Shown here: one piece after another, positions 1 to 56,333 of the stretch
Numbering within the stretch: the first letter of the stretch is position 1
Layout: every line of letters starts with the position of its first letter
DNA from: Psammoneis japonica
Taxonomy: Eukaryota
Length of the DNA stretch: 64,000 nucleotides
NCBI GenBank assembly: GCA_008632985.1
Contig: QPGO01000138.1
Location: forward strand, 124,001-188,000
Reading direction: 5' to 3'
Notes under the pieces: generated by a model
Seen by the model: only the letters and a program-made list of their open reading frames with translations
Told to the model about the DNA's origin: nothing
The model's database searches: none
Translations under genes and position numbers: made by a program

Positions 1-2480
1 CCTCTTTGAAACATGCGCAGAGACATTGATTGGTCAGGAGTCTCGAAATGTGCTCTGTGTGCCTGCTGGTCGAACAAGCAGAACAGGCTGTTGCACAACT
101 GATTCCAAAAAAGGAGAGTTGCCACCACCCTGACTAGTGCCGTGTGGGGGGAAAGCCTCAGAGTGGGAACAGGAAGATGAGGACAAGCCGAGGACGGTTT
201 TGAGCCAACATCTGGCTTCGTGCAATGTGGCACCAGCCACTTTTGTGACTTCAGCAGGCATGCCATTGCTCCAACTCTGCACGGAGGTCAACACAGGCAT
301 GTTGTGATTGCAGCACAAGGTGTCATCGCCATTGCTGTGGATCGTAGATTTCTGAGACACCCAAATGGTCTCGAGCACAAGTTCTTCAAGATGGACCAGA
401 GTGTTGGCATTTGGGAAAGGGCATGTGCCGCACATGCCGGGATTGTGGGGCCAACAGTGTTCCACATTCTGATCCAAGAGATGCCACTTGATTCTGGACA
501 TCAGTTGAAAGTCTGCCTTGTAGATTTGAATGACTCAAAGGCAATGAATCTTGTCATTGCTGGGCTCTTTGAAAATCACAACATTCACAATGTCCTTCCA
601 GCAATCACAGGAACATCCCAATTTGAGGGCACAGTTCAACAAGTTCAGCCAGATGGCGGTCAGGCACTGTTGCACCTTGTTCAGTCAGACTTGGTCTTGT
701 GCAGGATTCTTGTCAGAATCTGTAGCCAAGGAGTAAGAATGTGGCACAAACATTGCTCTCTGGTGGCCCAAATGCAATCCAGAACACAATGAAGTTGAGG
801 CAGATTCCTTCCACTTCTTGAATTTACCTTCCAATTTAGTTTTGGTTGACAAATTTGACACTGACACTGGTGATTGTCTTTGTAAGAATTGAGCAAGTTG
901 AGCGGTGGCATCGTTCAAGGCCGACGTGTCATGTTCACCATCAAGCATGAGATCAGCCATGATGGTGTCCCCTTTGCATCCCAAATCAATCAACAAGGGA
1001 GGAACAGTTGGAGGAGTGCTGTGCGCTTGACCAAAGTGTTTCTGATTGTGGCAACAAAGGGCCATGGCCACCTCTTCTGGAGCATCGACAGTCACCCAAT
1101 CCTCACACTTGTTTGGATTCATGGCTGCTGGATTGCAAGGTGCTTGAACACTGCCAATGCCCACATCTCTTTGCGTCTTGCAGGACTGGATTTCCTTGAA
1201 CAGTTTTTGGACTTCCTTGGCTTTCCAGATGTTGCGGAGAATCTTCACTTTGCATTTAGAATCCTTGGTGCCTTTCATGTCTAACTTTGCAATGCATTCC
1301 ACCAGCTCCCATTCTTGGTGGACAACGCTCTCCTTGGCCACTTGTCTGCATTTGGTTTGGGCTTGTCACAGAGCAGTTTGAAAATCTGCGTGAGACTCAG
1401 AAATGATGAAGGACCCCTGCAGCTTGTTTTGCACATTACGAACTTGAGACACACAATCCAATCCGGTTTGCATCATGGCCACTGTTCTTGCGAGGACATG
1501 CACTTGATGCCAAAGGTCTGCCAGTTCCATGGACCATTCCGGCTCTCAACAATTCCAGCATTGTTTTGTGGCTGCCAGTGCAAACTGAGTCATGTCACGA
1601 TCCAATCTCTCTGCAAGCGAGTGGTCTGGAGCCTCCAGGCACAAGAGTTGCCATGACCATTCAAGCACATTTCTGCTGTCAATCATCAGACCAATCACCT
1701 TGAGATGGGACGTCACCTGAGGCTTGGAGGAGGCTTGAATGTTGCAAAAGGTGGCCTTGGGGAGGTCAACAGTTTGGTTGCCAAACAACCAAACAGCGTC
1801 AAAGACAACGTGGTGGGTGCAGTGGCCGGACATCACCCTGCAGCCAAAGGCCTCACACCCTCCAAGACGGGCAGCCGCCAGGGCACCTGGCATTGCCAAT
1901 GCACAGTCAAGCCTTTTGGAACCTCTTGTGTGTGTGGAGAAGTCTGTCTCACCAGCAAGGTCAAACAAAACATCCGACAAGTTGAGTCGTTGAGCCATCA
2001 AGGACAGGAGTCAGTGTCCATGGCAAAGTCCATGTTGAAATCCCCAAACAAGATCACCTGTCTGTCAGCATCAATCAAGAAATCTTGTAAAATTTGTGAC
2101 AAGTTGGTGCAAAAGGCCTTTCTTGGGTCCAAACACTGCTGCTGTCCATTCTGAGGAAGCAAGCAAAGCTGTTGTGCACATGCTGTCATCTTGCCTGGAG
2201 TGCATTGGTTCTTGGTGCACACACAGCAGCAAGAAACAAACATCACTTGGTGGCCATTGCGTCCGTCTAAGACTTGAACAGACCTTTGTCCAAGGGGATC
2301 CACATCATGACTCCGGAAACAAGCAGAAATGGAATTGCAAGAAATTAGAGCCATGCCACCTGGTTTGCACTAAGTGGCAAAGGGAGTTGAGCTGCATGAA
2401 AAGCTGGATTGGCCATGTGGAAGGGAACTCGAAATGGCAGATCTGCACGTGGACAACACCTTGCATTGAGTGACATTCAG
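1..2480 (-). mobile_element. Degenerate non-LTR retrotransposon (LINE; APE endonuclease + RT, resembling diatom Ambal-type), running off the window start
   Basis: Minus-strand fragments: APE motifs VILFGDFN (1998-2354) and THTRGSKRLDC (1546-2001); WKESASTSLCSGLHLGH (685-1341); WKDIVNVVIFKEPSNDKIHCL*VIQIYKADF (~500-600); RT motifs DDTLCCNH and HGTSQGGGNSP (34-501); many stops and frameshifts. Confidence 0.85.
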
Positions 2481-2737
2481 ACAAACTTCTGAAACACCAC
2501 AATGGAAGAAAACAAAATGGGGGGGTCTTTGGAAGCAAGATCATTGAAGGCAGTCTGATTGCCAGTGCATTTGGGGGTTTTCCCAGCACAATTTGCGTGC
2601 ACAAGAAAACACACAGGATCTGTCTGGCATTCCCAAATGCCCCAATTGTGCTGATTGACAGATGTTTTTGGCACAAATTCTGCACAGCTTTCTTTGACAG
2701 TCTCACTTCCAAAGATGCCCCACAAAATTGGAAATGA

Positions 2738-3240
2738 AAAATTGCAAATCCAATGTTGCCCGCAAACAAACAAAGAAGGTTGCTGGCATGCAGAAGCAAC
2801 CAAGTGCCGCACCCAACATGTCAGGCAAATTCAAAGAGAGTGAGGCATTTTGCTTTTGGGTGAAGTGCACTGTGGCTGTCATTGCTGTTGTTGTGCCCTG
2901 TCACACGTGGTGACCATTTCTGCATTGTGGTTGGCATGCTTTCACGACCCCTCCAGAACTGGCAAATCTGGGTGGCAAATGCGTTGACCACCCCAAGCCA
3001 GAGAAGGAGTTGTTGGAAGCATCTGACCATCAAGACTCTGAGAGTGTTCTTGTCCATGGCAAGAGGGGTGGAGGGAAGACATTGCTTGTTCAAGAACATG
3101 CACTCAAAACTGAAAAGGCGTGATCAACGTTGGAATCAAAAGCACCACTCACAACGGAGCATTAGATGAGATGATTGAAAAAATGTCAAAACAGTTTCAC
3201 ATGTTGGGCATGTCTAAAGATCAGGAATTTGTCAAAGATG
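2738..3240 (+). pseudogene. Degenerate P-loop NTPase gene fragment, copy 1
   Basis: Walker A-like VLVHGKRGGGKTLLVQ at ~3046-3093; ~500 bp clearly homologous to 6549-7055. Confidence 0.6.
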
Positions 3241-6212
3241 TGTGTTCAAGATGCAAGTTTGGGCATCTCTTCAACTCAGAAGTTGCCAGCTGCTTTGCAA
3301 TCTTGCACACCGGCACGCCCCACAAGTGTCCCCAGTCACCCAGGAGTGATCTGGCTCTGCCCTTCAAATCAAACTTGGCAACAAACAACAAGGTTCCATC
3401 CTCATCAATGAGAGATGGAGCTGGGCAGCTGATGACATCAACGGCGAGGAGCATGTTGTTAACACTCTGTCCTTTCCAACATGCACACAGAGAAACAGGT
3501 GCACTCTTGCTGAGGCACCCCGTGATTTTTTGTGCACTCTGCATGTGTGTCACCATGTGGTCCATTGCAGCCAAGGAAAGGCTCTTTTTAAAAGCTCTTT
3601 TTAAAAGCCCCCACCCCACCACCACACACACATTTGTCATTCAAAGTGAGCAACTCCACAGCAAAAATTGTCAATCTTCTGCTGGAGCACACAGCCAACC
3701 CACTGAGCCTGAGAGCTTTTCCACAGCACTTCACCCACTGTTGTTGCTCCAGTGGGTGCTTTGATCTTGCCATCAAGAGCTTTCCTTGGCTTCACTTTGG
3801 TGAGGAGCAATTGCACTTTGCACAGAGGCTGTTCTCTTTTTTTTTTTGCAGTGTGCACATCATGACAGAACTTGTCCAGGTGGAGTGCCCTCCATTGGTT
3901 GCAAACATGTGCAGTTGCTCTTGAAGCACTGGGGGACAAACAAGTGGCAAGTCACTGTTCACCCTGGCAGGTTTGCAGGCAGCCCAGTTCCCTTGGTGCC
4001 AGCCAGATGCAGCCTCATTTTCAGTCATGACAGCTCTCCCCCACACTCTTTGCAGGCAGCAGATGCAGTGCTGCTCTCAGCTGTTGGGTGTGCAAATGTT
4101 TGCCATGGACAATCCAATGGTGTCACAGCAAAATGCAATGGTGGTCACACTGAATGCAGCTGCAACAGCAATGTGTGTGATTGTGTGCCACTGCCATCAT
4201 CAGCAATGTGTCACTCTGATGTTTGGAGTTTCTGGCTTTTTGATTCCATGGTCTGACAAAAGGACAGGCCAAGTGCAGCCATTTTTTTCAGATCTCCACG
4301 GTCCATTGCATGTTGGCTGGCCGGGCCAGGGTGCTCTCCACCATGAGCAAGGACCCACAGCATCAGTCTGTCAGGATGCACAAGCTCCAGCATGAATGTT
4401 GTAACCATGAGCAATGATGTGTGCTGCTGTGGTTTGCCAAATTTGTTGCATGTTTTGGCAAGTGCTCATTCACACCAGTGATTCATTTTGGGGTCACCCT
4501 CTGGCAAGGACATGCATGACATGCAAAACACACAATGCAAAAAAAGCATTGTTCACTGCTGGAAGCCCAAGCAAAACACTGGGGCATCATGTGCTGCCCC
4601 TCATTGCTGGCCAAGGGAGTTCTGGGAGCTCCTCTTGGCTCCTGCGACATCAAGCAAAAAAGTGTGTTGCCACTTTCTTTCAAAGAAGCAAGCTCTTTCA
4701 GTGTGAAAAACAGCTTCAACGCCATTGACAATGACAAAACACACTTTGCACAAGCCCCTTGCTGCAAACACAAAGTCATCTCAGCTTTCATTGACAGCCC
4801 ATCCTTGCCAGCAAGCACTGCAAGAGCTGCAAGAATGTGTGCTTTTGCAGAGTGCTTCTTCCATTGCTGCTGGCAATGCAAATGACATGCTGTCAATGTT
4901 GGCTTGCCCCACAGCTGTTGAAATGCCAGATGCCAAAAAAGGGCTTCAACAGACATGTGTCAACTGGATCAAGGTCTGACTCCTCTTCTCCAAATCCTGT
5001 CAAGACAACCTGCACAGCTCCATCAATTCAAGTGCTGCTTGACACAACTGCAAAACTGCTCATGAAACTGTCAATGGAAGTGAGACCAACAAAAAACAAA
5101 ATCCAGAGTGCCCAATTCTGTCCAAATCATGCACAGCAAGAGTGAGCAACAATCGAGCGGCAACTTTAACTCATGTTGCATTGGCACATGAAAAGACAGA
5201 AGATTTGCTGAAAGATGTGTGGCATCCCCTTGCACTCAAGGAAACTGCCTTGAATTCTTTGACTGTGATTGAAAGAGCAAAATGTGGCACAGCATTGACT
5301 GTGCAGGTGTTTTGTCCCCAAACAGCACAACTTGGCAGTGCAACAAATGTCCCCCCCTCTTGTTGTTGAGCACTCCACACACAAGAGCTGCTGCCACTGT
5401 CAATTGACAAAACAGCTTTCAATGTCAAATTCTCTTGGAAGTCATCTCTGACAAGAATGTGTCACATTTTTCTGAACTCAAATCAACTCCTTTGTTGGAC
5501 CTGCACAAAGACAAATGCTTCCCTGACAGAGCTCAAAAAAGAGCTGCTCCTCCATTGACTCAGTGGGCAATGGTCACCCAACTGAAATCACCTTTGCCTT
5601 GTGGAAGAGCCCGGCCCCAAAACAAAGATGTGCCCTTCTTGCAACAAGAACATTTTGTGAAAGGAAGCATGTCAAATCAAGCAAAAGGAAAGCAGCTACA
5701 AGCAACTCCAAAATGAACATTTGTTTGCTCTTGGAATGCTCTCAACAAGAGCAGGAGACCTCCCAAGGTGCTTCCTGCCTCCAAAATGAAAAAGAGCAAG
5801 AGAAAGAGAGTTGACAAGAAGTCAACGAACACAGCAACAAATGCCAGATGAAGATCCTTGAAGTGATGCAGAGAGGACAAGTGGCTGGAAATGATGGCTT
5901 GAGCAACTGCAGATGCAGTCAATGCCACCCGAGCAGAAGCTGCTGTTGCTGTCAAGTGAGCAAGTTGTCACCACAGCTGAGGGCAACACAGCCACCAAGA
6001 AAGTGGCTGATGAGAGGCTGAAGGGCCTGATGATGGTGCACCAGCCATGATGGTGGCATTGTCTGCAAGAAAAAGGGGGGCACAAGAACGTTGAGTGTGC
6101 CAATGCATTTTGAAATGGGCCGCACCAAGTTTGGCTGGGCACAGGTGGAAAACACTTGCAAATGAGACAAGCAATGACCCCTCCAACAGGCAGACCTTTG
6201 CAAATCCTCCAA

Positions 6213-6232
6213 CCCCCCCCCCCCCCCCCCCC
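6213..6232. repeat. Poly-C tract (20 nt)
   Basis: Direct reading. Confidence 0.95.
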
Positions 6233-6548
6233 AAACAACAAATGGAGGCAACACAATGCCAGGGGGCACCCAACCACTTGCAATGCGGCCAAGGCTCCCT
6301 TCACCTGTGGCACAATTGCAGAGCAGATGACTCACCTTCTTGGATCCAAACTTGGCTGTGTGAGCAACCTCATGACAGAAGGCAACATGGGCATGGATGC
6401 AAGGAACATTTAACTTGCTCATGCAGGGTCAATTTGTGCAAACCGGTCTGTCTCTACAACCAACACTGAGGGGAGAGAGACAGACTGTGCCAGTGCATTG
6501 CCGCACACACATGCATGCACAACGGAACAAAAGCAAAATTGGCAATGC

Positions 6549-7055
6549 AAAATTGCAAATCCAGTGTCACCTGCAAACAAACAAGAAGCTTGCTGGCATG
6601 CAGAAGCAAGTGAGCACCGCACCAACATGTTGGGCAAATCTGAAGAGAGAGTGAGGCATTTCACTTCTGGGTGAAGTGCGCTGTGGCTGATGTTGCTGTC
6701 ATTGTGGCTGCCCCCCTGGCACCACACGATTGTGGTGACCATTTCTGCATTGTGGTTGGCATTCACAACACCTCCAGAACTGGCAAATCTGGATGGCAAA
6801 CACATCAACTGCCCCAAGCTGGAGAAGGAATTGTTGGAAGCGGCCAGCAGTCAAGACTCTGAGACTGTTCTTGTCTGTGGCAAGAGGGGTGAGGGAAGAC
6901 ATTGCTTGTTCAGCATGCATTCAAAAATGAAAAGGCGTGGTCAACATTGAAATCAAAAGCACTGCTCATGATGGAGCATCAGAAGAGATGATTGAAAAAA
7001 TGTCAAAAAAGCTTCACAAGTTGTGCATGTCTGAAAATCAGGAATTTGTTGAAGA
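6549..7055 (+). pseudogene. Degenerate P-loop NTPase gene fragment, copy 2 (direct repeat of 2738-3240)
   Basis: VLVCGKRG followed by a 1-bp deletion in Walker A; aligns by eye with copy 1. Confidence 0.6.
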
Positions 7056-9201
7056 TTCACATTTGAGGTGCCCAATTGTTGACCCATTTTTTGTGATTTT
7101 GCTCAAAGCAAGGAGGTGTGGTTGTGACACTCTGGAGAGTGTTGTCACAATGGCCAAAATGCTCTCATGTGACAATGCCCACAAAAAGCCTCCATGAATT
7201 GTGGCAGATGTTTCAAGCTCATGTTCCATGTTTGAAGCAGGGTCTCAGCTTGAAATCCACAGAGTGATTGGCGTCCATGTTCGTTGCTTCTGGATGCAGA
7301 GGCTTGGGAACTTGTGTGCAATTGCCAGGTTGGTTGTGGCCAAATTTGATTGACGCATCCTCACACTGAAGATGGTGTGCAAATTGCTTGAAAAAAACCA
7401 GCGCACCCAAAAAAGTGTCATGGACACACCAATCACAGAGCAGTTTGAGCTGGAGAAGAAATGTGCATTGGCCAGTTGGGACTCATCATGCAAAGGCTTG
7501 GAAAAGGAACTGGGTGCTCAACTGATGCACAAGATTGGGCAAGATGTTGCTCATTTGCTGCTGTTGGAAAGTCCCCAGGAAGAAAAAAACATCACTCGAG
7601 TGTCAAAGACAAATGCATCAAAGTTGCTTGCAGAGTGTGGCATTGGGTTGGCAAGTGCAGATGCTCCATGTCCCCCACTCTCCATTGATCCTTTCAAAAC
7701 TGCCCCATCCACCCTTGCTGGCAAAGCTGTTGTGGCAGCACTGACAGAAGATTTCAAGAGTGGCAACACTGCCTGGTGTCAGTCGAATGACAGATGATGG
7801 ACAGACTGCCTGCCATGGACAGGACACGACAGGCTGCAGAGCAGGAGGGCATGTGTCACAGCTCCTTTCACTCTTTTCCTGGTGTTTGCTGTTTTGTGTT
7901 TTTGTCATGCATCGCTGGAGTCCTGTGCAGAGCACCCTGACTTTCTTCATTCTGCATTCTCTCTGTTCAAAAAGGTGGGGATTTCACAAGAGCCCCCCTT
8001 CACTCTCTTCTCCTGGCTGCTGTTGCCTTTTTGCACTTGTCAACTGTGTTGCTTTGAGGGCGACAGGCTGTCTGAACACAAATTCAAAGCAAAATGACCT
8101 CAGTGACTCCTGCACCCACCCATTTTTGAACACAGATCTACCACAAAAGACTCAAAAAGAGCCAAAATGAGCTAAACTTGAAAGTGCCAACAAGGTGCCA
8201 GTGTGGACCCACAGGTCAACTCTGCAGCACATTGAATGAAGGCCAAACCAATGAACAGTTTCCACAACACCACAATCCACTCATCTGCCAAAGCCTTGCA
8301 GCTTGAAGTTGCACCCAACACAGTGCAACAAAAAACATCATGTCATCCACCAAGGCTCTTGTTTGTTTGCATGCCAATCGTGGCCCCATCATCAACTAAG
8401 ATGAGAGCATTTTCGCACGACAATGACAAGAAGATGACCGCCAGTGCTGGAGACTCCACACCATGGTCATGTTGGACATTTGTTTTCTGTTGACCATCCT
8501 TCAATGTGTCATGTTCAGACATGCCAAGAAAAGTGCAAAGGGTGGGTGCAGGCTGACCCACATTTTTCGGGGGCACTTGACCCGCGTGTTGTTGCTCAAA
8601 ACTTTTTGCATGTGAAAAAGAACGTGCGCGAAACAAGCAGGGAGAGCAGTGCTTTCTTGTTGCCACGTGTGTGGAGCACCCCCCCTCCCTCCCCATGAGG
8701 ACTGGGATGGAAGGGCATCTTCAGCAGTTCAGACCGACAATGGTCCCATGCTGCCATCCACCTGCCAAGAAAAATCAAGGGTCATTACAGTGCAGTCCCT
8801 TGAAAAACAGACAGAAGCGTGCTTGCCGCGCTATCAACACAGTTGACTGGCCAAGCGGCACGCGCGCGAACGAGCCGCGACAATAAGGCAATTGGCGAAC
8901 AAAACAATATGTAGACATTAGAATAACATACAATATATATTTATTCATGCCAGGAGTTTCAACACTTAACTCTCAACGTATGTCTCATGCGTTGGAAAAT
9001 CAAGCTCACATTTTTCTGTAGCGGGAAGCGGGAGCGATTCCCCACCAACCCGCACTTGCGCAGGCCCTAGAGACAAAAGACGTGTACACGTACTGTACTT
9101 CTTGTTGAGCCTGCTTCATTGATTGGACGGACAGTGAATGCTTTCTTGTATGTTTGCGGTGACTGCTTCGCCGATTACTTCGTTGGTTCACAGACGCCAT
9201 C

Positions 9202-10657: not shown

Positions 10658-10888
10658 CTAGGTAGCCGATAGCAGACAGAACAAGTACATAGGGCCCTAG
10701 TGTAAAAGCAAAGGCGTGAGATGGTTGCGCGCAAGTGCCCATACGTGCGCGGTGCTGTGAGTCGATTTCAGATTGCAGATTGCCGCTTGGCGGCCAAGAA
10801 CCTCACACCTCACACCTCATTCTCGCTTTGTTTTCGTTGAACGACGTTGAAGCTACAACACTCAACACCACATCCAACGACTTTTACC

Positions 10889-23565: not shown

Positions 23566-23689
23566 GGTTGGTGGCTGTTTTTCAGTTGTTTCTGCAATCC
23601 CGCAAATCTGGAATCTCTCACGGACAGCGGACAGTGCTGGACGGTAGACGGACAGACTCAAAATTACCCAACGTGCGTGCGTGCGTGCT

Positions 23690-38112: not shown

Positions 38113-38262
38113 CCCTCCCCTGATCTGTGACATCTCAACATAGAGAACAGTGCAGATCAAACCAAAGAACAGGGATGATGTGAGGAAAAAAAACAGAGAG
38201 ACTGGACATGGGACACAATGAGTGTCCATGCCCAATGCGCCATCAAACAAGGGCTCACAACC

Positions 38263-38456
38263 TGACAGAATGCTGAAGGTCGACAGTGACAGAGGCATGA
38301 AAGACTCCCCAAAGCACCAGGACTGTGACAACACGAGCACCAGCAGATGAGAAAGCGAGAAGCAGATCTCAGAGAGATCTGCTCATCTGTCTAAATGGTC
38401 CAGCCATCATCCGCATCCAGTCTGTCCATCCTGCGATGGGTGCAGACAGGCTGACA
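38263..38456 (-). repeat. LTR B (194 bp) with PBS-like GGTTGTGAGCCC (38251-38262) and PPT (38457-38469)
   Basis: Direct repeat of LTR A. Confidence 0.9.
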
Positions 38457-38761
38457 CCCTCCCCTGATCTGCAATGTCTCAACACAGCGAATGGTGCAGA
38501 TCAAACCAAAGAATGGGGATGATGTGAGGAAAAAAAACAGAGAGACTGGACACAGGACACAACAAGTGTCCATGCCCAATGCGCCATCAAACAAGGGGGG
38601 CAATGCGCAGCAGGGAGGCCAAGCTTTCTGTTTCGATTCATTTGTTTTGTGAGCCGATCAAGCGAGCCTCATCGTCTGATCCGACAACTTTTTGTCTCGC
38701 TTTCCCGGCATTTTTCACGACCGTAGAAACATGCCAGATTTCTGCGCGTGCATGACCAAAA

Positions 38762-42890: not shown

Positions 42891-42925
42891 CCTCTGTCAC
42901 TGTCGACCTTCGGCATTCTGTCAGT

Positions 42926-43066
42926 GCCAGGACTGTGACAACACGAGCACCAGCAGATGAGAAAGTGAGAAGCAGATCTCAGAGAGATCTGCTTGTCCAT
43001 CTAAATGGTCTGGCCATCATCCACATCCAGTCTGTCCATCCTGCAACAGGTGCAGATGGGCTGACA
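42926..43066 (-). repeat. Partial LTR C abutting an inverted LTR end (~42888-42922)
   Basis: Matches LTR A/B/D; PPT at 43067-43079. Confidence 0.85.
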
Positions 43067-43246
43067 CCCTCCCCTGATCTGCAATGTCTCAACATAGAGA
43101 ACAGTGCAGATCAAACCAAAGAACAGGGATGATGTGAGGAAAAAAGACAGAGAGACCAGACACAGGACACAACAAGTGTCCATGCCCAATGCGCCATCAA
43201 ACAAGGGGGCAACACGCAGCAGGGAGGCCACCGCGGAAAAAAAATG

Positions 43247-45895
43247 TCAACAGCAGTGTCCCATCATGCGTCGAGCATGGCGGGCGTGTGACACCCAGCC
43301 AAGAGCCTTGGCAAGGTCATCGCTGGGGTTGACAATGCCAGGGACATGTCTTGTGACAATCTTGCCCGCTTCCTTCCATTCTTGAATCGCAAAAAACTGG
43401 ATCTCAATGTGACGGGAGTGCTCGGTCGGAATCGAGTGATTGATGATCTTGATCGCCGATTCGTTGTCAACATGTGACGGGGTTGGCTCCGTCTGAGGGA
43501 AGCCTGGGTCGTGCAAAACGTGATGAAGGTGCAGGACATGCTTGGCAGCAGTTCCAGCAGCACAGAATTCAGCTTCTGTAGATCTCGCAGCGGTCACCGA
43601 TTGGGTCTTGCACCGAAAAGACACAGCAGCACCAGCCAACATGCAAGCACAGCCAGTCGTAGAACGACGGTTGCGGAGGTCATTGCCACAAGCAGCATCC
43701 AAGAAAGCAACGAGTTGATGATCACATGCAGGTCAAGGGAACGATGGTGAGGTCGGGTCCGGAGTGAGACGTTCGAAGGGGCAGGCAGGTAGTTTTGAGT
43801 CTCGGGTGGGCTTTTTGTGGTTCAATTCCCAATGCTCAGTGCGTCGAAGGTGCTTGCATGTTCCTTTGAGCGCGTCACAGTGAACCACAGCAGGACAGGT
43901 CGAGAACTTGGAGAGAGCAGTGATGGCATGCCCAATGTCCAGTCGACAGACAACGTGCGCATGCAACAACTCGCCAAGAAGAGTGCGGCAGCCGAAACCA
44001 GCAGCTTGTTGTGGCTCCGCATGCTCCGGGGTTCCTTCAGCTGGGCCAATGGCAGTGTGCAGTTCACGAACAGAGTCAACAGGGAGTGGTGTAGCCTTGC
44101 AGTCGTCGTCGAGTTCCTCGTCCGTCGGTGTCGACCAACCATGTGAGGCACAAACCCGATCTACACAGCTGTGAACAGCAATGCCAATGGAGTCGTCACA
44201 CTGATGAACATCTGCACCATTGAATTCGTCAATCATGCCAAGATGCTTGAATGGCGGAGAGGTTTCCAAATCCAATTGGAGAGCTTTGCCAATCCTGTCG
44301 TAGATCTTGATTGCAACAGACTCTTCAGGACAAGCGAGAGAGAAATCATCAACCTGATGGAGGAGCAAGATCTTTTGTCCTTCAAAAGCAGCAGAGCAGA
44401 CACATTTGTCATGAGTGGTGTTGCGAAAAAGCAGGTTCACATCAGACAAAACACCATTGATGTGTGTCTCCCAGAGCACACCGGCTTCTGGGTGTCCTTG
44501 GAGTGCATGTTGCATCGGAAGTGCCATGCTCCTGTCCAAGTCAATGCCAAATCGAGCCTTGCACCAGGTCGCGCATGCCTCGTCTGTGGCAACACACACG
44601 GGATGTGACGGTCGTGGAGAGTGTGCACAGGCATCACGAGCATCCCCACCAAAGACAGGACAGCTCATGGTCGCAGCAAGGGCAAAAAACATGCGTTGGA
44701 CAGGTTGCTCGACACAGGATGAGTGCATCAAGTAGAGACGATGTAGGATCGACGCAGCACGGGGAGATCCATTGCAGCACTGTCGAGAGTGCCGTGTGCC
44801 ATCATGCTTGAGGTCACATTGCCAATGCGGACAAAGTACGATGGCATCCTTGGGTCGTTTAATCGGTGCACCAAACATCCCCAACTCATGGAACTGGTCA
44901 AGTTGTTTGAATTCACCTGCATGCCATTCGGGCCACGTGTCCAACTTCTTGAGACGATGGCGGGTGAAAGTGCCCAAGGCTTGTTCCTCTGGAGCAATGG
45001 CATGAGATGATGTGGCACAGATGTTGACCACACCATTGTCACAATCGACAAAGAACGGCGGAAGGACATCGTCATCATTCGTTTTGGAGAAATCAATGTT
45101 GGGGTGGCGGACAGCAGCAACAGCATGCATGTCGGCGTTGGTGATTTCCGGAACATGCTCATCATCAGGATCAGGAGTCGGTGCACATGTGTTGTGTTCC
45201 ATCAGAGCACGTTGTAGAGCTTGAGAGTCCAGGCGACGTTCCGGCGCGAATTCAACGTCAAAATGAGTCTTGCCAGAATCACAGACTTGCTGAAAACATT
45301 TGACAGCCTCCTCTGCCGTGAAGACAGGGTGATCATCGATCGATGCGACATGCGCACCCTTGATCTTGTTGCGGGTGGCCTTCAAAGAAGAGAAAAGACG
45401 CGCAGCAGGAGAACCACGTTTGATGTCAGAGACAAATGCTCACCGACAGAGATCGTCTGTAGCCAAGGAAAGTCCAAACGTGGGATCAGCAAATGGTCCC
45501 TTCATCGTGCGCTTGATGGTCTTGGCAAAAGGATTCCCATGAAAGTGAAACTCATCCATCGTGGTTTCTTCAGTCTCGGCAGGTAAAGCCTTGCCATCTT
45601 GAGCACGTTCCAAGTGAACTGCATTCGGTGGAAGAACGTTGTGGGGAAGATCATTCATGCCCTCATCATGGCAGATGTGTTTGGCAAGCTTGACACGCGA
45701 TGTCTCAGGATCACACCATAGAATGTTCTTGGCAGTGTCCGGAAGACAGCCCAAGAACATTCCCTTGCGAGAGACAGACCAAAATTTGCGGGGCGGTGAT
45801 TCGACGCACGCACCCACACTCAACAACCAAATGTACGAAAGTTCTTGAAATCATCCTTCCGACCAGCAGCGAGAGCAATCGGGGCAGCAGGTTGT
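43247..45895 (-). mobile_element. Copia pol 3' half (integrase tail, RT, RNase H), degenerate
   Basis: ALQGHPEAG, HQVDDF, CRLDIGHAITALSKF, DAACGND..RRSTTG, STEAEF, DNESAI, HIEIQFFAIQEW, NPSDDLAK. Confidence 0.92.
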
Positions 45896-46075
45896 CCGTG
45901 GCAGTGTCGAATGATGCCTTCTTGGCAGTGGCAGGGGTGGTGTCCACATCAATCTGCGGAGAAAGAGGCATTTCAGCGGCAGATGACGAGACGGTTAGTC
46001 CCTCTTTCAAGGTCATCCCGCTGACATTCGTCATGTCTCGGTGAGGGGAAAACGGGCAGCGTCGGAGATCCGAAA

Positions 46076-48125
46076 CTAGCTGTGACGGCCCGATTGAAAA
46101 TCCGAAGGCGGAGCACCAGATTTAGTCGAATTTTCAGGGTTTTCATGATGGGGGGGAGCAGGCCTTGGGGTCCTTGGAACTCAGAAGCATGCACAGCTGC
46201 CTCCCTCTTCAAGAATTGGCAAAAGCGGACATGGAATCCCTTGATGTGCAGATTGTTCTCAAGACTGGACAGTCGTCAAATGAGTGTTCACCGGAGCAGA
46301 CGAGACACGGTTTCTTGGAAGCTTCAGTCAGAGTGACTTTCAGCTCACAAACTGAAGCCGAGTGGACATGGTGAAGGAGTCGATCTTCGTCCGTGGAGGG
46401 GAACTCAAGTCCATGTAACTCGTCGCAAAGAGTGTCGAAGGCATCCGAAGAGAGAGATTCTGCACCAGCATCTTCAACAGCAGAGTCATCGACTGGTTCA
46501 AGTGGAGGGATCTCGGGGACCTGGAGAGCATTGACATCAACAGTCGTGCGTCGTGTTTCCTCATTGGCACGATTCCATTTACGGCAGGGATTGGATGGTG
46601 TCGTACGGGTGTCAATGGATGGACCATCTGGTTGGCGGAGGAAATCAGAGAGAGTCTCGACAATCTGTGCATCGGCGCACTTCTTCTGCACAGCTGGAGA
46701 CTTCCGTTCATCTCTGGTGGCACGAGATAAGAACTTGGAGTGCTCAGTGTTCTTGACAAAGATGGTCATCTCCCGTGGATCACTCAACGTAGAGTCCACA
46801 TCAAAGATGCATGCACGCAGCTGCAGGAAATCATTGAAAATCATGTGGTGGTCCGTCAAAGATCGATTGCCTTGGGCAGGATGGGAATCAACTAGTCCTG
46901 CAGCATCATGGTCAAAAGCAGGGTGATTCTCGCAGACAATCTGCTTGAGAGCCTTGCACCCGTTGCCGCAGCATGATGCAACAATCCGATGACACTTGCT
47001 GTTCTTGGGGAACATGTCTGACTTGGATGGGATCTTGTGGAGAGAGCTCTGGGCTTCCTTGCAGTGGACGTACATGCGCTGGGGTAAGTCATCATCTTTG
47101 CCATTTCCAATCTTGAAACCTTTCTCACCACCGTGGTCCTTGGCAAAACACCACAATGGAAACATGCAGCAACCTGAATCAAAGGCATGACGTTGGAAAT
47201 TTTGGCACCATGCTTGCATCCCAGGGGGAGAGTCGTCATGACACACAGGAGGTTCCCTGAACAGCATTTTCTGATCAGGAGTCGAGCTCATGATGAAAAG
47301 GGTGCCATTGTCAAGGATGATGCGATCGGGTGCATCAACACAGTGATGGAATCCATGGTCGCAAGGGACGAGAGAGCTCTGAAGAGTGACTTTTCCATCT
47401 TCTTTGCAGTCGTAGCGTGCACGAACATCTGGAGGAAGTGTGTTCGGATTGAAGAGGTATTTCGATGTCACGGAGGATGCAGCACTTCCAGACGTCTCAG
47501 CAGAAGCTGCAGAAGGCGGAGCATGGCTCTACGCGCATGCATTGAGTGCAGTGACTGAGTCAGTCACAGTCAATGTAGCAGGTCCTGTGGGTTTCTGAGA
47601 AGAAGACGGAGGCTGCTGTTTCTTCTGGCAGGGCACAAGACAGAACTCGTTCAAATTGCGATAGTTCCACAGCATGTCTGGATCAACATGCACATGTTGG
47701 GCAGATGTGGCAATGAACAGAGATTGTCCACCATTCTGAAGATTCGTCTTGATCATCTTTGATGAGATCGGAGTCGTCAGGCGGACTGGACGAGGCCTTT
47801 GAGGGTCAAGAAGTCTGAACAGGGCTTGATCCATAATCGTCTTGATTGATTCCATGTCCGTGGGATCAGCTGTGCAAGGTGGAAACGCTTCGTGGATGAA
47901 ACAATCGCGGAGCATGTCCGCAAAATCATTCTTGGGTTGCGTGTGCTCTGGATCGTCAAAAAATTGATCAAGATCAGTTGTGGAGTCCGCACAAACCGTG
48001 TTCAGACACTGATGTAGATGTGGTGTTGTTGTGTGTGCCTCAAATTCGCAGCAGATCTCTGCAATTGACGCAGGAGCGGCTTTTGCAAGGTCGGGAGACG
48101 CCATGGTTTTAGTGGGTGGAGCCAT
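46076..48125 (-). mobile_element. Copia gag, copy 2 (frameshifted); protease and integrase deleted at ~45895
   Basis: Translation nearly co-linear with 38762-40813. Confidence 0.88.
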
Positions 48126-48303
48126 TTTTGGTCATGCACGCGCAGAAATCTGGTGTGTTTCTACGGTCGTGAAAAATGCCAGGAAAGCGAGACAAAAAGT
48201 TGTCGGATCAGATGATGAGGCTCGCTCGATCGGCTCACAAAACAAATGAATCGAAACAGAGGGCTTGGCGCAGAGGTCTGTGGCACAGCGCATGGCTACA
48301 ACC

Positions 48304-48497
48304 TGACAGAATGCCGAAGGTCGACAGTGACAGAGGTGTGAAAGACTCCCTAAAGCACCAGGACTGTGATGACACGAGCACCAGTAGATGAGAAAGTGAG
48401 AAGCAGATCTCAGAGAGATCTGCTCGTCTGTCCAAATGGTCTGGCCATCGTCCACATCCAGTCTGTCCATCCTACGACAGGTGCAGACAGGCTGACA
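48304..48497 (-). repeat. LTR D (5' LTR, 194 bp) followed by PBS-like GGTTGTAGCC
   Basis: Aligns with LTR A/B; TSD adjacent. Confidence 0.9.
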
Positions 48498-49263
48498 GTT
48501 GGAGAGTGTTGCCTTGCAAATTGCAGACATGTTGCATTGGCACCTGGTCATTGACAAGGACACCCCTCTTCTGTTCATTGTGGGAAAAGGAAGCAACGGT
48601 GCAAGTGCCATTGAGGCTGCCAGGATTTTGCATTTTCAAGGCTTTTCTGTCAACGTGGTTTCTCTTGTTTTGCCAACTGACAAAAACTTGAGACCCAACA
48701 TGTCAGAGCAATTGGAGCTCTGCAAGCAATTTGTTGGATGTGACATTTTTCATCCTCTTGACTGGGAAATTGTCAAGCTGCACAACAAAGGTGTCACTGT
48801 GCTTCACCGTGGTGAAAACCGTAAGCCATGAGTTTGCAATGAAGGTGTGCCGGCAGACTCACTTCAAAATTGTGTTCCTCAGCTGTCAAATGATTGATAT
48901 GATGCATTCGTCTGGTGCCGGAAGACTGCGTTTTTGAGAAAGATCGATGATTGGCGTCATCGTCGTGCTTCGATCGCCGATCGCGGTGTTTGATCAGTGG
49001 TGCATTGGTTTCATGTTATTATTTTCGTGCGCGATCGGGTGCGAATAAGAATAATTTTTGTATTCAAAAATACACACTTATAAATAGCTTTATTGAAATG
49101 TCATTGTAATTTTAGGATAAACCCGGGACTGACTACCCTAAAGTCTGCCATCAAAATTGGCCCAGAACTCTCCACGGTCCGCAGTGTGGGAGTAGCCAAT
49201 GGCGATAAGGCTACCAGGTTGTCACCGTTCGTACTTTTAACAAAGCTCGGCCGACGCTGATTA

Positions 49264-50233: not shown

Positions 50234-50702
50234 ATGATCCTTTGCAATGTGATGAGCTGTCCCGGTGGTTTATCACGATCCCGTATTTCGCAACTACACT
50301 CATCGTCGCCTATAATTCCTTACAAATAGCACAACACGTTCTGATTCATGGTTCATCATTCTAGGTTGACAACACAGTGCCGTCGTCCGCGTGCGAGTAA
50401 CGCCTGAGCATCGGCTGGTTCGCTCTCTTGCCACGGTAGGTGCTTCTGTATCCGCAAGTTAGAGTTTCTTAAGGCTTTCTATCTAACCGACATCTTTCAT
50501 TTGTTTTGGCGTTTGTTTTGGCGCGTCTGAGGTGTTCGAAATGCGAGCATTTTTGTGTTGTGTGTCGCCTCATTGTTTGTTCGGTTCTGCAGAGTTTGCT
50601 GTTTTGCTTGCTTTTCTCCTTGCTTTTGTGCTGAACCTTTCCCTTTCCTCCAGTCACAAATCTTGAAACAGGTGTCGTCTCTCTCACCCAACACAAGCAA
50701 CA

Positions 50703-51295
50703 ATGAAGTTCACCGGCCGTGCCGCTGCTGCGTTCGCCCTTGCCCTTTCTCTACGGAGTGCCTGTCCCGAAGACGGTACATCTTCTGAAGCATTTGAAAT
50801 TCCCACGTGCAACTACATTGATTGTCTCGGCACGGTTCTGGACAGCATTGGACGCGAAACATTCGGTGATGCCAAGCTCGATCGACGTTCCCGCATCGCC
50901 CATACGAGACTTGCTGTTGCAAAAGAAGCCATGGAAGAGGGCGGGAAAGGCATCCTGGGGTCGCTTAATACGCTCATGAATGTGAACGCGCGTCTTCAAA
51001 GTATAGCATACAGGGCTGCCATGAAAAACAATTTGCAGGCAGAAGAATCATCAACGAAGCAGCAAAAACGTTGAGCCCGTGTGCAGCGGAACTCATGGAA
51101 GGCATGATTTCCATTTTGCCCAAGAGGGAATTGAGCGACTTTCTTAATCCTGGAAGGGCGACGCGAACGTTGGAAAGGGTAAAATCCCTTATCGAGGAGG
51201 GTAGATACGCAAAGAGTGCATATAGGTCCGAACTTGGAATAGAACGGATGACCGCCAAATTCGAAAAAGAACGGATTCGGTTCAGTTGTTTTTAA
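50703..51295 (+). CDS. Hypothetical secreted protein (one frameshift near 51025)
   Basis: Signal-peptide-like MKFTGRAAAAFALALSL; adding one A in the A run joins ORFs 50703-51074 and 51071-51295. Confidence 0.45.
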
Positions 51296-54673: not shown

Positions 54674-55441
54674 CTATTCTTTCTTGATGACTCCCACTTC
54701 AGCTGGCCGTATCACACGATCATTGAGAATGAATCCAACCTTCATGACCTGCCCAATGGTACCGGCTTCTGACTTTGGGTCAGGATACTCGTAAAGAGCC
54801 TCATGACGATTCGGATCAAAAACTTCTCCCGGTTCTCCGAATTTCTTCAACCCATTCTTGGCAAACGCCTTGGTGAGGCCTTCGTCCGTCATTTGGATTC
54901 CCTCGTACAAGGTAGCCAAGACGGGATGCTGCTCACGGTCGTTGCGGTATTCCTCCGGCACGGCTTCCAACGCACGCGTCAAGTTGTCCGAGGTGTCCAA
55001 CAACGATTTTGCAAAACTAGCTACTGCAAAGTTCCGCGCCGTATCGACATCTTTCTTGGCAATGCGGCGAGTGTTTTCCTGTTCGGCCAAACTCCTCAAC
55101 AGCTGATCTTTCAGATCCTTCACCTCATTCTCGAGTTCCTCCTCGCGATTTAATTCTCCTCCTTCCTCTCCTTCAGCCGGGGTTGGTTCTTCTTCTGTTG
55201 CTTCAGCCGGTTCTTCCTCGATCTTTTCTTCTTCCACTTTTTGTTCAGCAGAAGCAGCACTGTCCTTGTCGCTCAAGAAGCGCATTTGTGAAACGGTGTG
55301 ACGGTACGAAGCAGGTCTTTGCATGGTGAACGCCGTGTTGACGCTAGGAACGCTGCTTTTTGCAAAAGGTTGTCGCCCACATGCTAGCACAATCTGACGC
55401 ACCGATCGGCTCGTCGGTACCATACGAGTTGATAAAGACAT
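54674..55441 (-). CDS. grpE: Mitochondrial GrpE nucleotide-exchange factor
   Basis: Transit-peptide-like N-terminus; LRSLAEQENTRR, FAKSLLDTSDNL, FDPNRHEAL, GFILNDRVIRPAEVGV. Confidence 0.95.
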   Translation of the reverse strand: MSLSTRMVPTSRSVRQIVLACGRQPFAKSSVPSVNTAFTMQRPASYRHTVSQMRFLSDKDSAASAEQKVEEEKIEEEPAEATEEEPTPAEGEEGGELNREEELENEVKDLKDQLLRSLAEQENTRRIAKKDVDTARNFAVASFAKSLLDTSDNLTRALEAVPEEYRNDREQHPVLATLYEGIQMTDEGLTKAFAKNGLKKFGEPGEVFDPNRHEALYEYPDPKSEAGTIGQVMKVGFILNDRVIRPAEVGVIKKE

Positions 55442-55809
55442 GAGTAGGTGGTACAGTATGTATATTTGCTTCCTGTTCCTTTCCTCCCCTCAAACGAGCT
55501 TGTTGGCGGCTGCGTCGATGTTCGAAGATGCAACCGCCGACGACCAAATTAAAATGCGTGGCGTGTGTTGCGCTTATTGTGCGGCGGCCGCAGACCCCAG
55601 TACGATTTGTACGTGGAAAAAGCGCGGGAAATCTGCTTGCAGTGGCTGACGTCACGAAATCACTGAGGCATGCTCTCCTATTTCGCATAAACACGAGCTT
55701 GCAACACTGTTTGCTGGAGCTGCCGGTAAACGTGTTTTCGTTGGAATCAGCTCGAGCTACCTCTCCCTTTCTGCATGAGCTCTCTAGAGAGACAGACCAG
55801 CAAGTAGAT

Positions 55810-56333
55810 TCATGAAAGAACACTCTCTGCCAGAGAGTGGCTCTGCTGCAGGTGAACTTTCAGGCCTGCTCTGTGCTGTGTGCTCCCCCACTGTGGCTGT
55901 GCCACCTGCCTGCTGGCTGGCAGGAGCGAACAAGTTCTTGAAAACAGATTCAGATCTCTGTGCCACTCATTGGTCATGTGCACATGGTGACTGTGCCTTT
56001 CATTTGTTGTTGTGTTGAAAACGTCAACGAAAGTGGGCTTGTCCTCTCCTCCTCTGAACTCAACGCAGCAGCCTCTCGCTTCTTGTCTCGAAAAGCTGTG
56101 CATCGCCCTCCAATGTGATGAACAAACAGGCCAAGTCAAAGTGACCCAAAAAGCCATCATGAGCCACACGGGGGCATGGCAGTGAGGCAAATGCCGGTGT
56201 GCTCACAAAAAGGTTCCAGCAAAGAACCAAGGCGCCACTCCACTGGCAGAGCAGCTGCTGTGGCTGAAAGCTGAGGAGACGCGAGTGGACAGCCCAGAGT
56301 GGAGTGAGAGATGCATCATCTCTCCTGCAGAGC
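55810..56333. other. Small TpA-free island (domain 4)
   Basis: No TA seen by eye in ~525 bp; some CG retained. Confidence 0.8.

Follow-up and report, generated by a model that had tools for sequence, protein, structure and literature searches.

Near-complete loss of the dinucleotide TpA from bounded domains of a 64-kb window of Psammoneis japonica DNA: evidence for a probable TA to TG/CA process in silenced mobile or foreign DNA

Introduction

The locus described here raises the question of which process can remove the dinucleotide TpA almost completely from sharply bounded stretches of DNA that lie among genes with ordinary TpA content. In Neurospora and other fungi, RIP changes C to T at CpA and so generates TpA, lowers the GC content and makes stop codons; it is duplication-dependent and premeiotic. 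Diatom transposable elements (TEs) are reportedly CpG-methylated, and DNMT5 is said to be the enzyme concerned.

The window (the whole 64-kb stretch of Psammoneis japonica DNA that was analysed) encodes a TilS-DUF924 protein whose best named matches are from Fragilaria crotonensis (71% identity), a Bacillariaceae sp. and Cylindrotheca closterium, and the named homologues of its reverse transcriptase (RT) come from Cylindrotheca fusiformis, Nitzschia inconspicua and Fragilaria crotonensis; judged from these proteins, the host is a pennate diatom. It is highly likely that ordinary genes are interspersed in this window with islands of silenced DNA, mobile or foreign in origin, and that a process working there at the DNA level turns 5'-TA-3' into TG or CA.

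TpA-poor domains and their borders

Depleted domains were delimited by two-state segmentation on P(A|T); the number of TpA expected in each of them was computed at the rate of the normal domains and compared by binomial P:

3-8785, no strand: depleted domain, 28 TA against 315 expected, TpA o/e 0.05, CpG o/e 0.19, log10 P -106
23499-27609, no strand: depleted domain, 17 TA against 163 expected, TpA o/e 0.06, CpG o/e 0.20, log10 P -52
30918-49016, no strand: depleted domain (the large block), 99 TA against 667 expected, TpA o/e 0.09, CpG o/e 0.49, log10 P -183
55809-56326, no strand: small depleted patch flanked by the genes for GrpE and an XPG-like protein, 0 TA in 518 bp against 17 expected, CpG o/e 0.32, log10 P -8
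50493-50750: doubtful TA-less stretch, 258 bp, 0 TA

The four sharply bounded domains sum to ~31.5 kb and contain 144 TpA, where the frequency found in neighbouring genes would predict ~1160; the depletion is real and far beyond chance. TG and CA are enriched in them (o/e 1.6-1.9; 1.74-1.87 in 3-8785), whereas the gene-bearing stretches in between show TpA o/e of 0.53-0.69 and CpG o/e of ~1. TAA and TAG stops fall to ~1.5 per kb each in depleted DNA, against 8.2, and as a result long spurious frames are open on all six frames. Sharp borders, each spanning less than ~50 bp, delimit the domains, as at the right end of the large block, where TpA returns abruptly at 49017. Segmentation and border maps agree with the nearly TpA-free, sharply bounded domains that the sequence-only reading had described amid TpA-ordinary genes, and its counts (3 in 1-600, 0 in 33181-33780 and 0 in 55810-56333) were exact.

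Related to this, the CpG o/e of 0.19-0.20 in the two leftmost domains fits decay by 5mC deamination, and in 30918-38600 TpA and CpG are both nearly gone (TpA o/e of 0.00-0.16 in 500-bp bins; CpG o/e of 0.00-0.28 per bin until 38500 and higher in the last bin). The TpA-free zones overrun the CpG-poor ones by 80-400 bp into the flanking DNA, reaching ~400 bp at the left margin of 23499-27609. Deamination of 5mC accounts for the CpG loss alone and not for the TpA loss: the two processes share their products (TpG and CpA) and their location in 3-8785, 23499-27609 and 30918-38600, but 5mC decay acts on CpG and the process considered here on TpA. The resemblance to RIP is a dinucleotide-specific, transition-only inactivation of mobile DNA in bounded domains, with some spill-over into the flanks. 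Unlike RIP, the process seen here destroys TpA, removes TAA and TAG stops and is GC-neutral; a fungal-RIP-type change of C to T at CpA was rejected, since TpA is lost instead of gained and GC is 0.47-0.50 in the depleted domains versus 0.47-0.51 in the normal ones.

Content of the domains and fate of duplicated sites

The following features are used below:

2723-3239 and 6534-7056, + strand: direct repeats, 82% identical, possibly an LTR pair
27576-27994, + strand: tandem duplicate that spans the right border of the domain 23499-27609
37919-38597, + strand: two tandem units of ~335 bp
38618-43230, + strand: Copia-type fragment 1, TpA o/e ~0.1, CpG o/e ~0.7
38756-40810: gag-like frame of fragment 1
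41626-42351: GAG-pre-integrase of fragment 1
42191-43129: integrase SH3-like domain of fragment 1
43217-48269, - strand: Copia-type fragment 2, inverted
43736-45439: RVT_2 frame of fragment 2
46212-47528 and 47532-48131: gag-like frames of fragment 2
48270-49016: right margin of the large block, holding a degenerate YjeF_N fragment (48496-48831, + strand)

Searches with Pfam and with tblastn, the latter with 269 Copia gag/pol homologues, found recognisable TE sequence at 38762-48131 only and matched no family in 3-8785, 23499-27609 or 30918-38600. The TE relics reported earlier for the domains are therefore confirmed for the Copia part and lack a family match in these three stretches, and the duplicated genes also reported inside the domains were not substantiated. 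Repeated DNA within the window consists of the Copia-bearing part of the large block and a few short segments, among them the ~335-bp unit, which recurs in direct orientation at 42927-43230 and 48294-48497.

The duplicates record separate outcomes at the same sites, most of their differences being double mismatches of TG against CA. In the inverted Copia pair (48269-45904 versus 38618-40985, 93.8% identity), transitions make up 132 of the 145 mismatches, and 31 aligned dinucleotides pair TG with CA, besides 13 TA:TA and 19 TA against TG or CA; the remaining signal is CpG decay, with 94 CG:CG and 34 CG against TG or CA. The direct repeats differ by 16 such TG/CA double mismatches and the ~335-bp tandem pair by 9. 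In the border-straddling duplicate, 4 sites that are still TA in the outer copy read CA or TG in the copy nearer to the depletion, and the reverse occurs at 0.

Loss of tyrosine from the transposon proteins

The Copia frames of the window contain 0.57% Tyr, 4.63% Cys and 5.55% His, compared with 2.59%, 1.37% and 2.59%, respectively, in ten host frames. The polarity of these differences was followed in the conserved columns of an alignment of the Copia RT frame with 31 homologues. Tyr is kept at 0 of the 19 Tyr-conserved columns, which now hold Cys (8), His (8), Phe (2) and Ser (1), while all conserved His (11/11), Trp (7/7), Glu (13/13) and Gln (9/9) are retained; conserved Ile is retained at 6 of 14 columns and replaced by Val at 6, and conserved Arg has become His or Cys at 5 of 19, a change that fits 5mC deamination. 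The median Tyr content of 119 RT homologues is 3.8%. Frame composition and polarised columns bear out the systematic Tyr to Cys/His change that had been noticed in the TE proteins; as these columns show, this change and that of Ile to Val are consequences of the TpA process, and the transposon proteins are wrecked by the former.

When the two copies of the gag-like protein were compared with 30 homologues, the 16 Tyr columns held Cys in both copies (4), His in both (4), Cys in one and His in the other (3), Tyr in one and Cys in the other (2), Tyr in both (1), His and Met (1) or Phe in both (1). The loss is thus partly shared and partly independent between the copies, and the 8:3 ratio of shared to discordant losses implies that part of the depletion is older than their split, so that a picture in which everything happened in situ after duplication is too simple.

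Related Copia loci in metagenomes

For comparison, 80 related Copia loci were taken from metagenome contigs and a family alignment of 35 copies was built. TpA o/e is at least 0.4 in 76 of the 80 loci, which are kin, include near-duplicates and so do not count as independent events, and whose diatom host is deduced from protein similarity only. It is 0.01 and 0.11 in the loci L065 and L068. There are 100-139 TA sites in the consensus of the family, and the copies have lost them to differing degree: L065 has lost 102 of 102 (63 to TG, 30 to CA and 9 otherwise, i.e. 93 changes to TG or CA), L068 101 of 109, L018/L019 ~70%, L035/L038 ~60% and the others down to 6%. In L038 the TpA depletion stops at the element end; bounded depletion with normal surroundings is seen in this locus as well as within the 64-kb window.

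It could be supposed that a low TpA content is native to the elements or to their source, or that TpA is selected against, the more so as TpA is mildly low everywhere in this genome (o/e ~0.55). This reading is already contradicted and retains hardly any probability: the homologues hold Tyr at positions that are Cys or His in the window copies, the relatives are neither TpA-poor nor rich in Cys and His, a TA-bearing consensus has been variably lost, and duplicates disagree, TG against CA, at one and the same site. These comparisons show that the TpA loss arose after insertion or duplication.

An artefact of assembly or base calling, such as the misreading of modified bases in heterochromatin, is judged very improbable. 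If a palindromic site were miscalled alike on both strands, TA and CG would be expected in the consensus too, but both are near zero, and the same signature is present in contigs of other assemblies (L065, L068). Besides, the partly mutated copies are near-identical across different metagenome contigs (99.96% for L018/L019, 99.2% for L035/L038), and Illumina-based mutation-accumulation data show the process in Bigelowiella natans, according to Mettrop et al. (bioRxiv 10.64898/2026.01.13.699255).

Sequence context and independence from CpG decay

In L065 and L068 taken together, A to G changes per A amount to 0.46 at TA against 0.10 at AA, 0.13 at CA and 0.06 at GA, a large excess at TpA; the corresponding values in 20 normal copies are 0.06, 0.04, 0.04 and 0.02. 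In the partly mutated copies the rate is 0.34 at TAC, 0.27 at TAT, 0.20 at TAG and 0.15 at TAA, i.e. a 3' pyrimidine (TAY) is preferred roughly twofold, and within a given context the two strands are equal. In the window itself, ATAC/GTAT survives at 0.005 of its normal density and CTAA/TTAG at 0.31. Runs tests on 8 copies detected neither clustering nor strand-coordinated runs.

These values bear on the earlier suggestion that a Pol-eta-like polymerase fills repair patches with errors at WA motifs, in a step coupled to the repair of deaminated 5mC. The coincidence of TpA and CpG depletion in 3-8785, 23499-27609 and 30918-38600 would suit it. However, ApA is no more affected than CpA, and single differences occur at 4 of 554 ARN contexts versus 18 of 385 TRN contexts, so that the WA motif fails. 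The coupling is likewise unsupported: the Copia part combines TpA o/e of 0.1 with CpG o/e of 0.7; TA loss ranges from 6% to 100% among the 35 family copies, all with CpG loss of 16-50% (other transitions, 2-8%); the two most TpA-depleted copies have CpG loss of merely 0.29 and 0.23; and L038 and L059 contain stretches that are CpG-poor and TpA-normal. The suggestion is accordingly given very little probability. By the same comparisons, the TpA process is independent of CpG decay, faster than it and able to saturate.

Another possibility is that the copies were edited before integration, by an ADAR-like enzyme on retroelement RNA or by a deaminase on cDNA, and inserted in mutated form. The sole identified content is indeed an LTR retrotransposon, part of the Tyr loss is common to both gag copies, and ADAR favours sites at which U precedes the edited A (bioRxiv 10.64898/2026.01.13.699255). 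Nevertheless, strands are equal within a context, Tyr has become Cys and His equally often in the RT, and clusters are absent from the 8 copies; on these grounds ADAR-type RNA hyperediting passed on by reverse transcription was rejected. Tandem DNA duplicates, never reverse-transcribed as separate units, carry the same double mismatches, which counts against editing before integration, as do the changes in the border-straddling duplicate, the extension of TpA-free zones past the CpG-poor ones into the flanks, the equal depletion of domains without a retroelement signature and, in B. natans, de novo mutations in integrated DNA-virus sequence (same preprint). Pre-integration editing is on the whole very unlikely. 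ADAR hyperediting and APOBEC3 editing in animals remain comparable as deaminase-type hypermutation of selfish elements; they act on RNA or nascent cDNA and leave clustered changes on a single strand, whereas the changes described here are unclustered, on both strands, and found in DNA-level duplicates and flanks.

The proposal of a second process apart from 5mC deamination, converting A:T to G:C at TpA in bounded silenced domains, is supported because the substitutions are polarised against homologues and a family consensus, duplicates have independently become TG or CA, and TpA loss is uncoupled from CpG loss. Two outcomes that would have spoken against it, relatives just as TpA-poor and Cys/His-rich and the absence of an A to G excess at TpA, were looked for and not encountered.

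Comparison with Bigelowiella natans and the possible agent

The sequence-only reading knew of no description of such a process, a statement that is now out of date. Mettrop et al. (bioRxiv 10.64898/2026.01.13.699255) report A:T to G:C hypermutation restricted to TpA in integrated NCLDV and virophage DNA of B. natans. Of the 231 mutations that arose in two integrated viral regions of mutation-accumulation lines, 230 were A to G or T to C. All of these fell on TpA, and the rate was ~6e-7 per site per generation; a de novo rate raised ~1000-fold and active in some lines only would be a mark of this type. The hypermutated NCLDV region is reported as single-copy, and TpA-poor clusters rich in CpA and TpG are enriched in reverse-transcriptase domains, DDE domains and unannotated ORFs. 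The TpA loss in the diatom shows the same signature and is most probably the same kind of process, and its description is not the first; a targeted TA to TG/CA process had so far been reported solely in that one unrelated alga. A mutation-accumulation paper on P. tricornutum reports, in the passages covered, a GC-to-AT bias and no TpA hotspot.

Both cases share the substitutions (exclusively TpA to TpG or CpA), the confinement to bounded regions and a bias toward GC against the genomic norm. In B. natans the regions are of mobile or foreign DNA; here Copia content was found at 38762-48131 only. They differ in host (a chlorarachniophyte of the Rhizaria there, a diatom of the Stramenopiles here), in the identified target (giant virus and virophage there, an LTR retrotransposon here) and in extent, since the NCLDV region has a Rho of 0.45 and the domains described here are near saturation (o/e 0.05-0.09) and overlie strong CpG depletion. 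The rate was measured directly in B. natans, while the diatom process is known from sequence comparison; the TAY preference, strand symmetry and lack of clustering described here were not found in the accessible part of that account.

The palindromic nature of TpA leaves the attacked base ambiguous, as the counts fit T to C at R-T-A as well as A to G at T-A-Y. If adenine is attacked, A to G on one strand or the other would give TG or CA. The agent would then be a DNA adenine deaminase that produces hypoxanthine and has a preference for U/T before A that is natural to deaminases of the TadA/ADAT type; it would be recruited to silenced chromatin, act slowly per generation over many generations, and serve genome defence, also erasing TA-containing signals (TATA boxes, AATAAA). 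Taken jointly, an adenine deaminase with this recruitment, low rate and defensive role is a tentative proposal, with a chance somewhat below even.

If thymine is attacked, a TET/JBP-type hydroxylase would modify the thymine of TpA in silenced DNA to 5-hydroxymethyluracil (5hmU) or to a base resembling J, and mispairing of the modified base with G would lead to T to C. All counts fit this equally well, 5hmU occurs preferentially at TpA and TpC in dinoflagellate DNA, and base J is a mark of silent DNA in kinetoplastids. Still, no finding points to thymine specifically, and we know of no 5hmU- or J-type modification in diatoms. Adenine deamination is the reading preferred in the B. natans study, which names an ADAT2-like candidate (bioRxiv 10.64898/2026.01.13.699255), and thymine attack is considered unlikely.

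Returning to adenine deamination, a broader and more speculative extension is possible, with perhaps one chance in three: diatoms and chlorarachniophytes would share a SAR-wide, TpA-directed DNA-editing defence, most likely a silenced-chromatin adenine deaminase, which in diatoms would be a principal means of inactivating LTR retrotransposons for good, faster than methyl-CpG decay and proceeding to saturation. If so, the enzyme could be found by comparing diatom and chlorarachniophyte lineages, and it would be a natural A-to-G editor of double-stranded DNA with a TA(Y) motif.

TpA landscape of the window

The whole-window averages (TpA observed/expected, o/e, 0.33; CpG o/e 0.67) conceal a two-state landscape, the depleted domains of which were delimited by two-state segmentation on P(A|T).

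Table. TpA-depleted domains of the window. The expected TpA number is that at the rate of the normal, gene-bearing stretches; P is binomial.
Domain A, 3-8785: 28 TpA, 315 expected; TpA o/e 0.05, CpG o/e 0.19; log10 P -106
Domain B, 23499-27609: 17 TpA, 163 expected; TpA o/e 0.06, CpG o/e 0.20; log10 P -52
Domains C and D, 30918-49016: 99 TpA, 667 expected; TpA o/e 0.09, CpG o/e 0.49; log10 P -183
Domain E, 55809-56326: 0 TpA, 17 expected; TpA o/e 0.00, CpG o/e 0.32; log10 P -8

The loss of TpA in bounded domains that the sequence-only reading had described is confirmed by these values, and its three spot counts of TpA (3, 0 and 0) were exact on recount. Between the domains, in the gene-bearing stretches, TpA o/e is 0.53-0.69 and CpG o/e about 1. 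Within the domains TG and CA are raised to o/e 1.6-1.9, and GC content is nearly unchanged. TAA and TAG number about 1.5 per kb each, against about 8.2 per kb in normal sequence, so that long open frames appear in all six frames. Besides these domains, the 258 bp at 50493-50750 contain no TpA, but CpG o/e (0.88) and the surroundings are normal; this stretch is doubtful as a domain, and it could be due to chance or be a very small target.

The domain borders are sharp, as those of the C and D block illustrate. On the left, TpA is found at 30901, 30905, 30909 and 30916, once more at 31036, and then almost nowhere; on the right it returns at 49017. The TpA-free zone extends outward beyond the CpG-poor zone by 80-400 bp (8400-8785, 23499-23921 and 30918-31058), and this suggests a TpA process that reaches further than CpG decay or outpaces it. 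A tandem pair lies across the border at 27609, and its inner copy has lost four TA that the outer copy keeps, the reverse being seen at no site. Two frames reach into the TpA-free margins:

22993-23847, minus strand: weak Cupin_8 match, its 5' third within the margin of domain B
48496-48831, plus strand: degenerate YjeF_N (NAD(P)HX epimerase) fragment, in the margin of the large depleted block

The continuation of the YjeF_N domain was sought 3' of 48831 and not found; the frame is probably a gene fragment trapped in a silenced zone.

Contents of the domains

Eukaryotic genes flank the domains: a DEPDC5 C-terminal region, XPG_N, GrpE, a sulfotransferase, a four-domain fasciclin protein and a PP-loop/TilS-like protein, the best named relatives of the last being from Fragilaria crotonensis (71%), a Bacillariaceae sp. 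and Cylindrotheca closterium. These relatives, together with those of the reverse transcriptase given below, identify the host as a pennate diatom and not as Bigelowiella. Recognisable mobile-element sequence is confined to one block:

38762-48131: two truncated Copia-type fragments, mutually inverted, with gag-like frames, GAG-pre-integrase, integrase SH3-like and RVT_2 domains
38618-40985 and 48269-45904: the inverted pair of gag-bearing copies
43736-45439: reverse transcriptase (RVT_2) frame, with named relatives in Cylindrotheca fusiformis, Nitzschia inconspicua and Fragilaria crotonensis

Around these fragments a unit of about 335 bp occurs four times in direct orientation, and in this block (domain D) TpA o/e is about 0.1 but CpG is mostly kept (o/e about 0.7). 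Of the 156 stop-to-stop frames of at least 90 aa that overlap the depleted domains, 134 were searched against Pfam; the other 22 are all in 39332-48000 and overlap searched frames. Outside the Copia block the search yielded the YjeF_N fragment, the GrpE gene already known and three weak matches below threshold, and nothing else. Domains A, B, C and E gave no match among Pfam families or, by tblastn, among 269 Copia gag/pol homologues. The description of the domains as relics of transposable elements consequently stands for the Copia block; for A, B, C and E it is likely but unproven.

Loss of TpA after insertion

The proteins of the Copia-type frames are poor in Tyr (0.57%) and rich in Cys (4.63%) and His (5.55%), compared with 2.59, 1.37 and 2.59% in ten host frames and with medians of 3.8, 1.9 and 4.3% in 119 reverse transcriptase homologues. 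The systematic change of Tyr to Cys or His that the sequence-only reading had noticed is borne out by the alignment of the reverse transcriptase frame with 31 homologues, where none of the 19 Tyr-conserved columns retains Tyr (Cys 8, His 8, Phe 2, Ser 1). His, Trp, Glu and Gln are retained wherever they are conserved (11/11, 7/7, 13/13 and 9/9 columns, respectively); Ile is replaced by Val in 6 of 14 columns, consistent with A>G at codon-boundary TpA, and Arg by His or Cys in 5 of 19, consistent with a milder CpG decay.

The two copies of the inverted pair are 93.8% identical, and 132 of their 145 mismatches are transitions. At 31 aligned dinucleotides one copy has TG and the other CA, a pattern that requires TA (or CG) in the ancestor and separate mutations, one on each strand; with 94 CG:CG and 34 CG:TG/CA sites, CpG can account for about 1-2 of the 31. 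Homogeneous independent decay was rejected, as it predicts about 3-4 such discordant sites (from 13 TA:TA and 19 TA:TG/CA); the excess indicates that most TpA was lost rapidly and that the survivors are refractory or newly arisen. When the gag-like protein was aligned with 30 homologues, the 16 Tyr columns read, in the two copies, CC 4, HH 4, CH/HC 3, CY/YC 2, YY 1, HM 1 and FF 1; on this alignment, the Tyr loss is partly older and partly younger than the split of the two copies. Double TG/CA mismatches are also present between two tandem units of about 335 bp (nine), for which separate reverse transcription is impossible, and between 2723-3239 and 6534-7056 (16). These comparisons show that TpA loss came after insertion, the process acting on resident DNA.

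Related Copia copies

A scan of metagenome contigs recovered 80 related Copia loci. A general poverty in TpA among relatives of the window's element, which would have spoken against the proposal of the sequence-only reading, was looked for and not seen, since 76 of the 80 have ordinary TpA (o/e of at least 0.4); the exceptions are L065 (0.01), L068 (0.11) and L018/L019 (about 0.3), and four is a lower bound because the scan patterns favour unmutated copies. Six further database homologues have Tyr replaced by Cys or His, for example P0360, with C or H in 12 of 14 Tyr columns.

A single family (78-100% nucleotide identity) comprises 35 of the loci; its copies are mutually related rather than independent, and their hosts are taken as diatoms from similarity alone. 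Scored against the majority consensus, L065 has lost all 102 TA sites (63 to TG, 30 to CA, 9 other) and L068 101 of 109, followed by L018/L019 (about 70%), L035/L038 (about 60%), L075 (53%), L027 (44%) and others down to 6%. Each of the pairs L018/L019 (99.96% identical) and L035/L038 (99.2%) represents one partly mutated element found on different contigs, which counts against an assembly artefact. CpG loss is 16-50% throughout the same copies, and other transitions amount to 2-8%. The coupling to methyl-C repair that had been suggested is not supported, as TpA loss ranges from 6% to completeness over this interval of CpG loss. In L038 the TpA depletion stops at the end of the element. Element-flanking DNA in L038 (6501-7500) and L059 (3501-5000) has CpG o/e of 0.14-0.33 with ordinary TpA o/e (0.5-0.84), that is, CpG decay without TpA loss, so the two decays are separable both ways. 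A bias of Vsr-type very-short-patch repair, which probably erodes CTAG in E. coli, was also considered: it would require coupling to cytosine methylation, and none is seen in the family copies or in L038/L059.

Context and strand of the changes

The polarised substitution spectrum was obtained for L065 and L068, in which A>G per adenine depends on the preceding base (T 0.46, A 0.10, C 0.13, G 0.06), the corresponding values in 20 normal copies being 0.06, 0.04, 0.04 and 0.02. The target is thus TA only and not TA plus AA, and the proposed Pol-eta-like repair with its WA motif is removed, since ApA is no target. In partly mutated copies the 3' context matters (TAC 0.34, TAT 0.27, TAG 0.20, TAA 0.15), and the two strands have equal rates within each 3' context. 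An apparent sense-strand bias, a TG excess of about 2:1 in L065, L068 and L019, vanishes once this context is controlled and is a context effect. The window agrees in that tetranucleotides containing ATA or TAT survive at 0.005-0.08 of normal density and others at 0.09-0.31; in the inverted pair, 15 of the 18 single TRN differences have a 3' pyrimidine.

Mutated sites are not spatially clustered in seven of eight copies (L021 being borderline, P about 0.04), and no runs of TG or CA outcomes were found in any of the eight; burst-like or processive action was rejected on these grounds. Editing before integration by an ADAR-type enzyme also fails, given equal strands, no outcome runs and marked tandem DNA duplicates. 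These patterns show a process that is TpA-specific, TAY-favouring, strand-symmetric, unclustered, domain-bounded and independent of CpG decay. They point to many independent hits over time on either strand of resident DNA, rather than a processive burst on an exposed strand.

Proposed mechanism

The central idea of the sequence-only reading, a second process converting A:T to G:C at TpA in bounded domains, is supported by the polarised spectra, the duplicates and the uncoupling from CpG. Its agent is, tentatively, an adenine deaminase acting on DNA and recruited to silenced chromatin. TadA/ADAT enzymes naturally deaminate A34 of tRNA, directly after the invariant U33, so a preference for T before A would be a native property. 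TpA is palindromic and, for this reason, A and T as the attacked base look alike in sequence alone; a modification of thymine at TpA would leave the same marks, and is considered unlikely.

Comparison with known systems and implications

Fungal RIP is the opposite of this process in chemistry and outcome. TpA-specific hypermutation has previously been reported in one organism, Bigelowiella natans, in one 2026 preprint (bioRxiv 10.64898/2026.01.13.699255), a precedent that the sequence-only reading did not know of. Of 302 nuclear point mutations in mutation-accumulation lines of that alga, 231 lay in two places, an integrated NCLDV region and a region of virophage DNA; of these, 230 were A>G or T>C, every one of them at TpA, with a rate of about 6e-7 per site per generation, and they arose in some lines only. 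The B. natans genome contains 124 clusters poor in TpA and rich in CpA+TpG, with an excess of reverse-transcriptase and DDE domains and of unannotated ORFs, and the authors of the preprint propose DNA adenine deamination with an ADAT2-like candidate (bioRxiv 10.64898/2026.01.13.699255). The window carries the long-term footprint of a process of this kind; the differences are that the window belongs to another supergroup branch (a diatom) and that the loss is on a retrotransposon, near saturation and overlaid on CpG decay. The literature search brought up no account of such hypermutation in diatoms; for P. tricornutum, the accessible part of a mutation-accumulation paper gives a GC-to-AT bias (PMC6604790).

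The Psammoneis case is not categorically new and extends a recently described phenomenon to diatoms, which are among the main groups of primary producers of the ocean; it also supplies context rules for TpA hypermutation. If this is true in diatoms, it would be not the curiosity of one alga but a mode of genome defence in at least two distant SAR branches, and the enzyme could be approached through genes common to diatoms and chlorarachniophytes; a DNA-acting deaminase would be a natural A-to-G DNA editor. For annotation, the loss of TAA and TAG creates false long ORFs in all frames and inflates counts of 'orphan genes', and TpA-depleted domains confuse both the annotation of transposable elements and divergence-based age estimates. 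Double mismatches of TG against CA between copies offer a simple, specific diagnostic that is usable on any genome.

Other features of the normal stretches

10847-11734, plus strand: DUF924 frame
12104-13219, plus strand: PP-loop/TilS-like frame, in tandem with the former
60790-62829, minus strand: four-domain fasciclin protein
56455-56814 and 58730-59087: inverted repeat, 85% identical, in the normal-TpA region around the XPG-like gene
57982-58275 and 58157-58464: degenerate tandem repeat, 74% identical

DUF924 and the TilS-like domain are on one protein of about 600 aa in many homologues, including one from Fragilaria crotonensis, and 10847-13219 is probably a single fused gene, interrupted by an intron or a change of frame. 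The best matches of the fasciclin protein are 36-39% identical and without taxonomic signal (those named including a Poseidoniales archaeon, Bacteroidota and shrimp TGFBI-like proteins), and no close diatom relative is among the matches listed from a large protein collection. The inverted repeat has 13 TA-versus-TG/CA sites, with TA kept by the first copy at nine and by the second at four, differences that may reflect mild or early hypermutation. The tandem repeat has TG/CA o/e of 1.84 and adjoins a locally TpA-rich stretch within 57501-58500 (TpA o/e 1.14 for 57501-58000).
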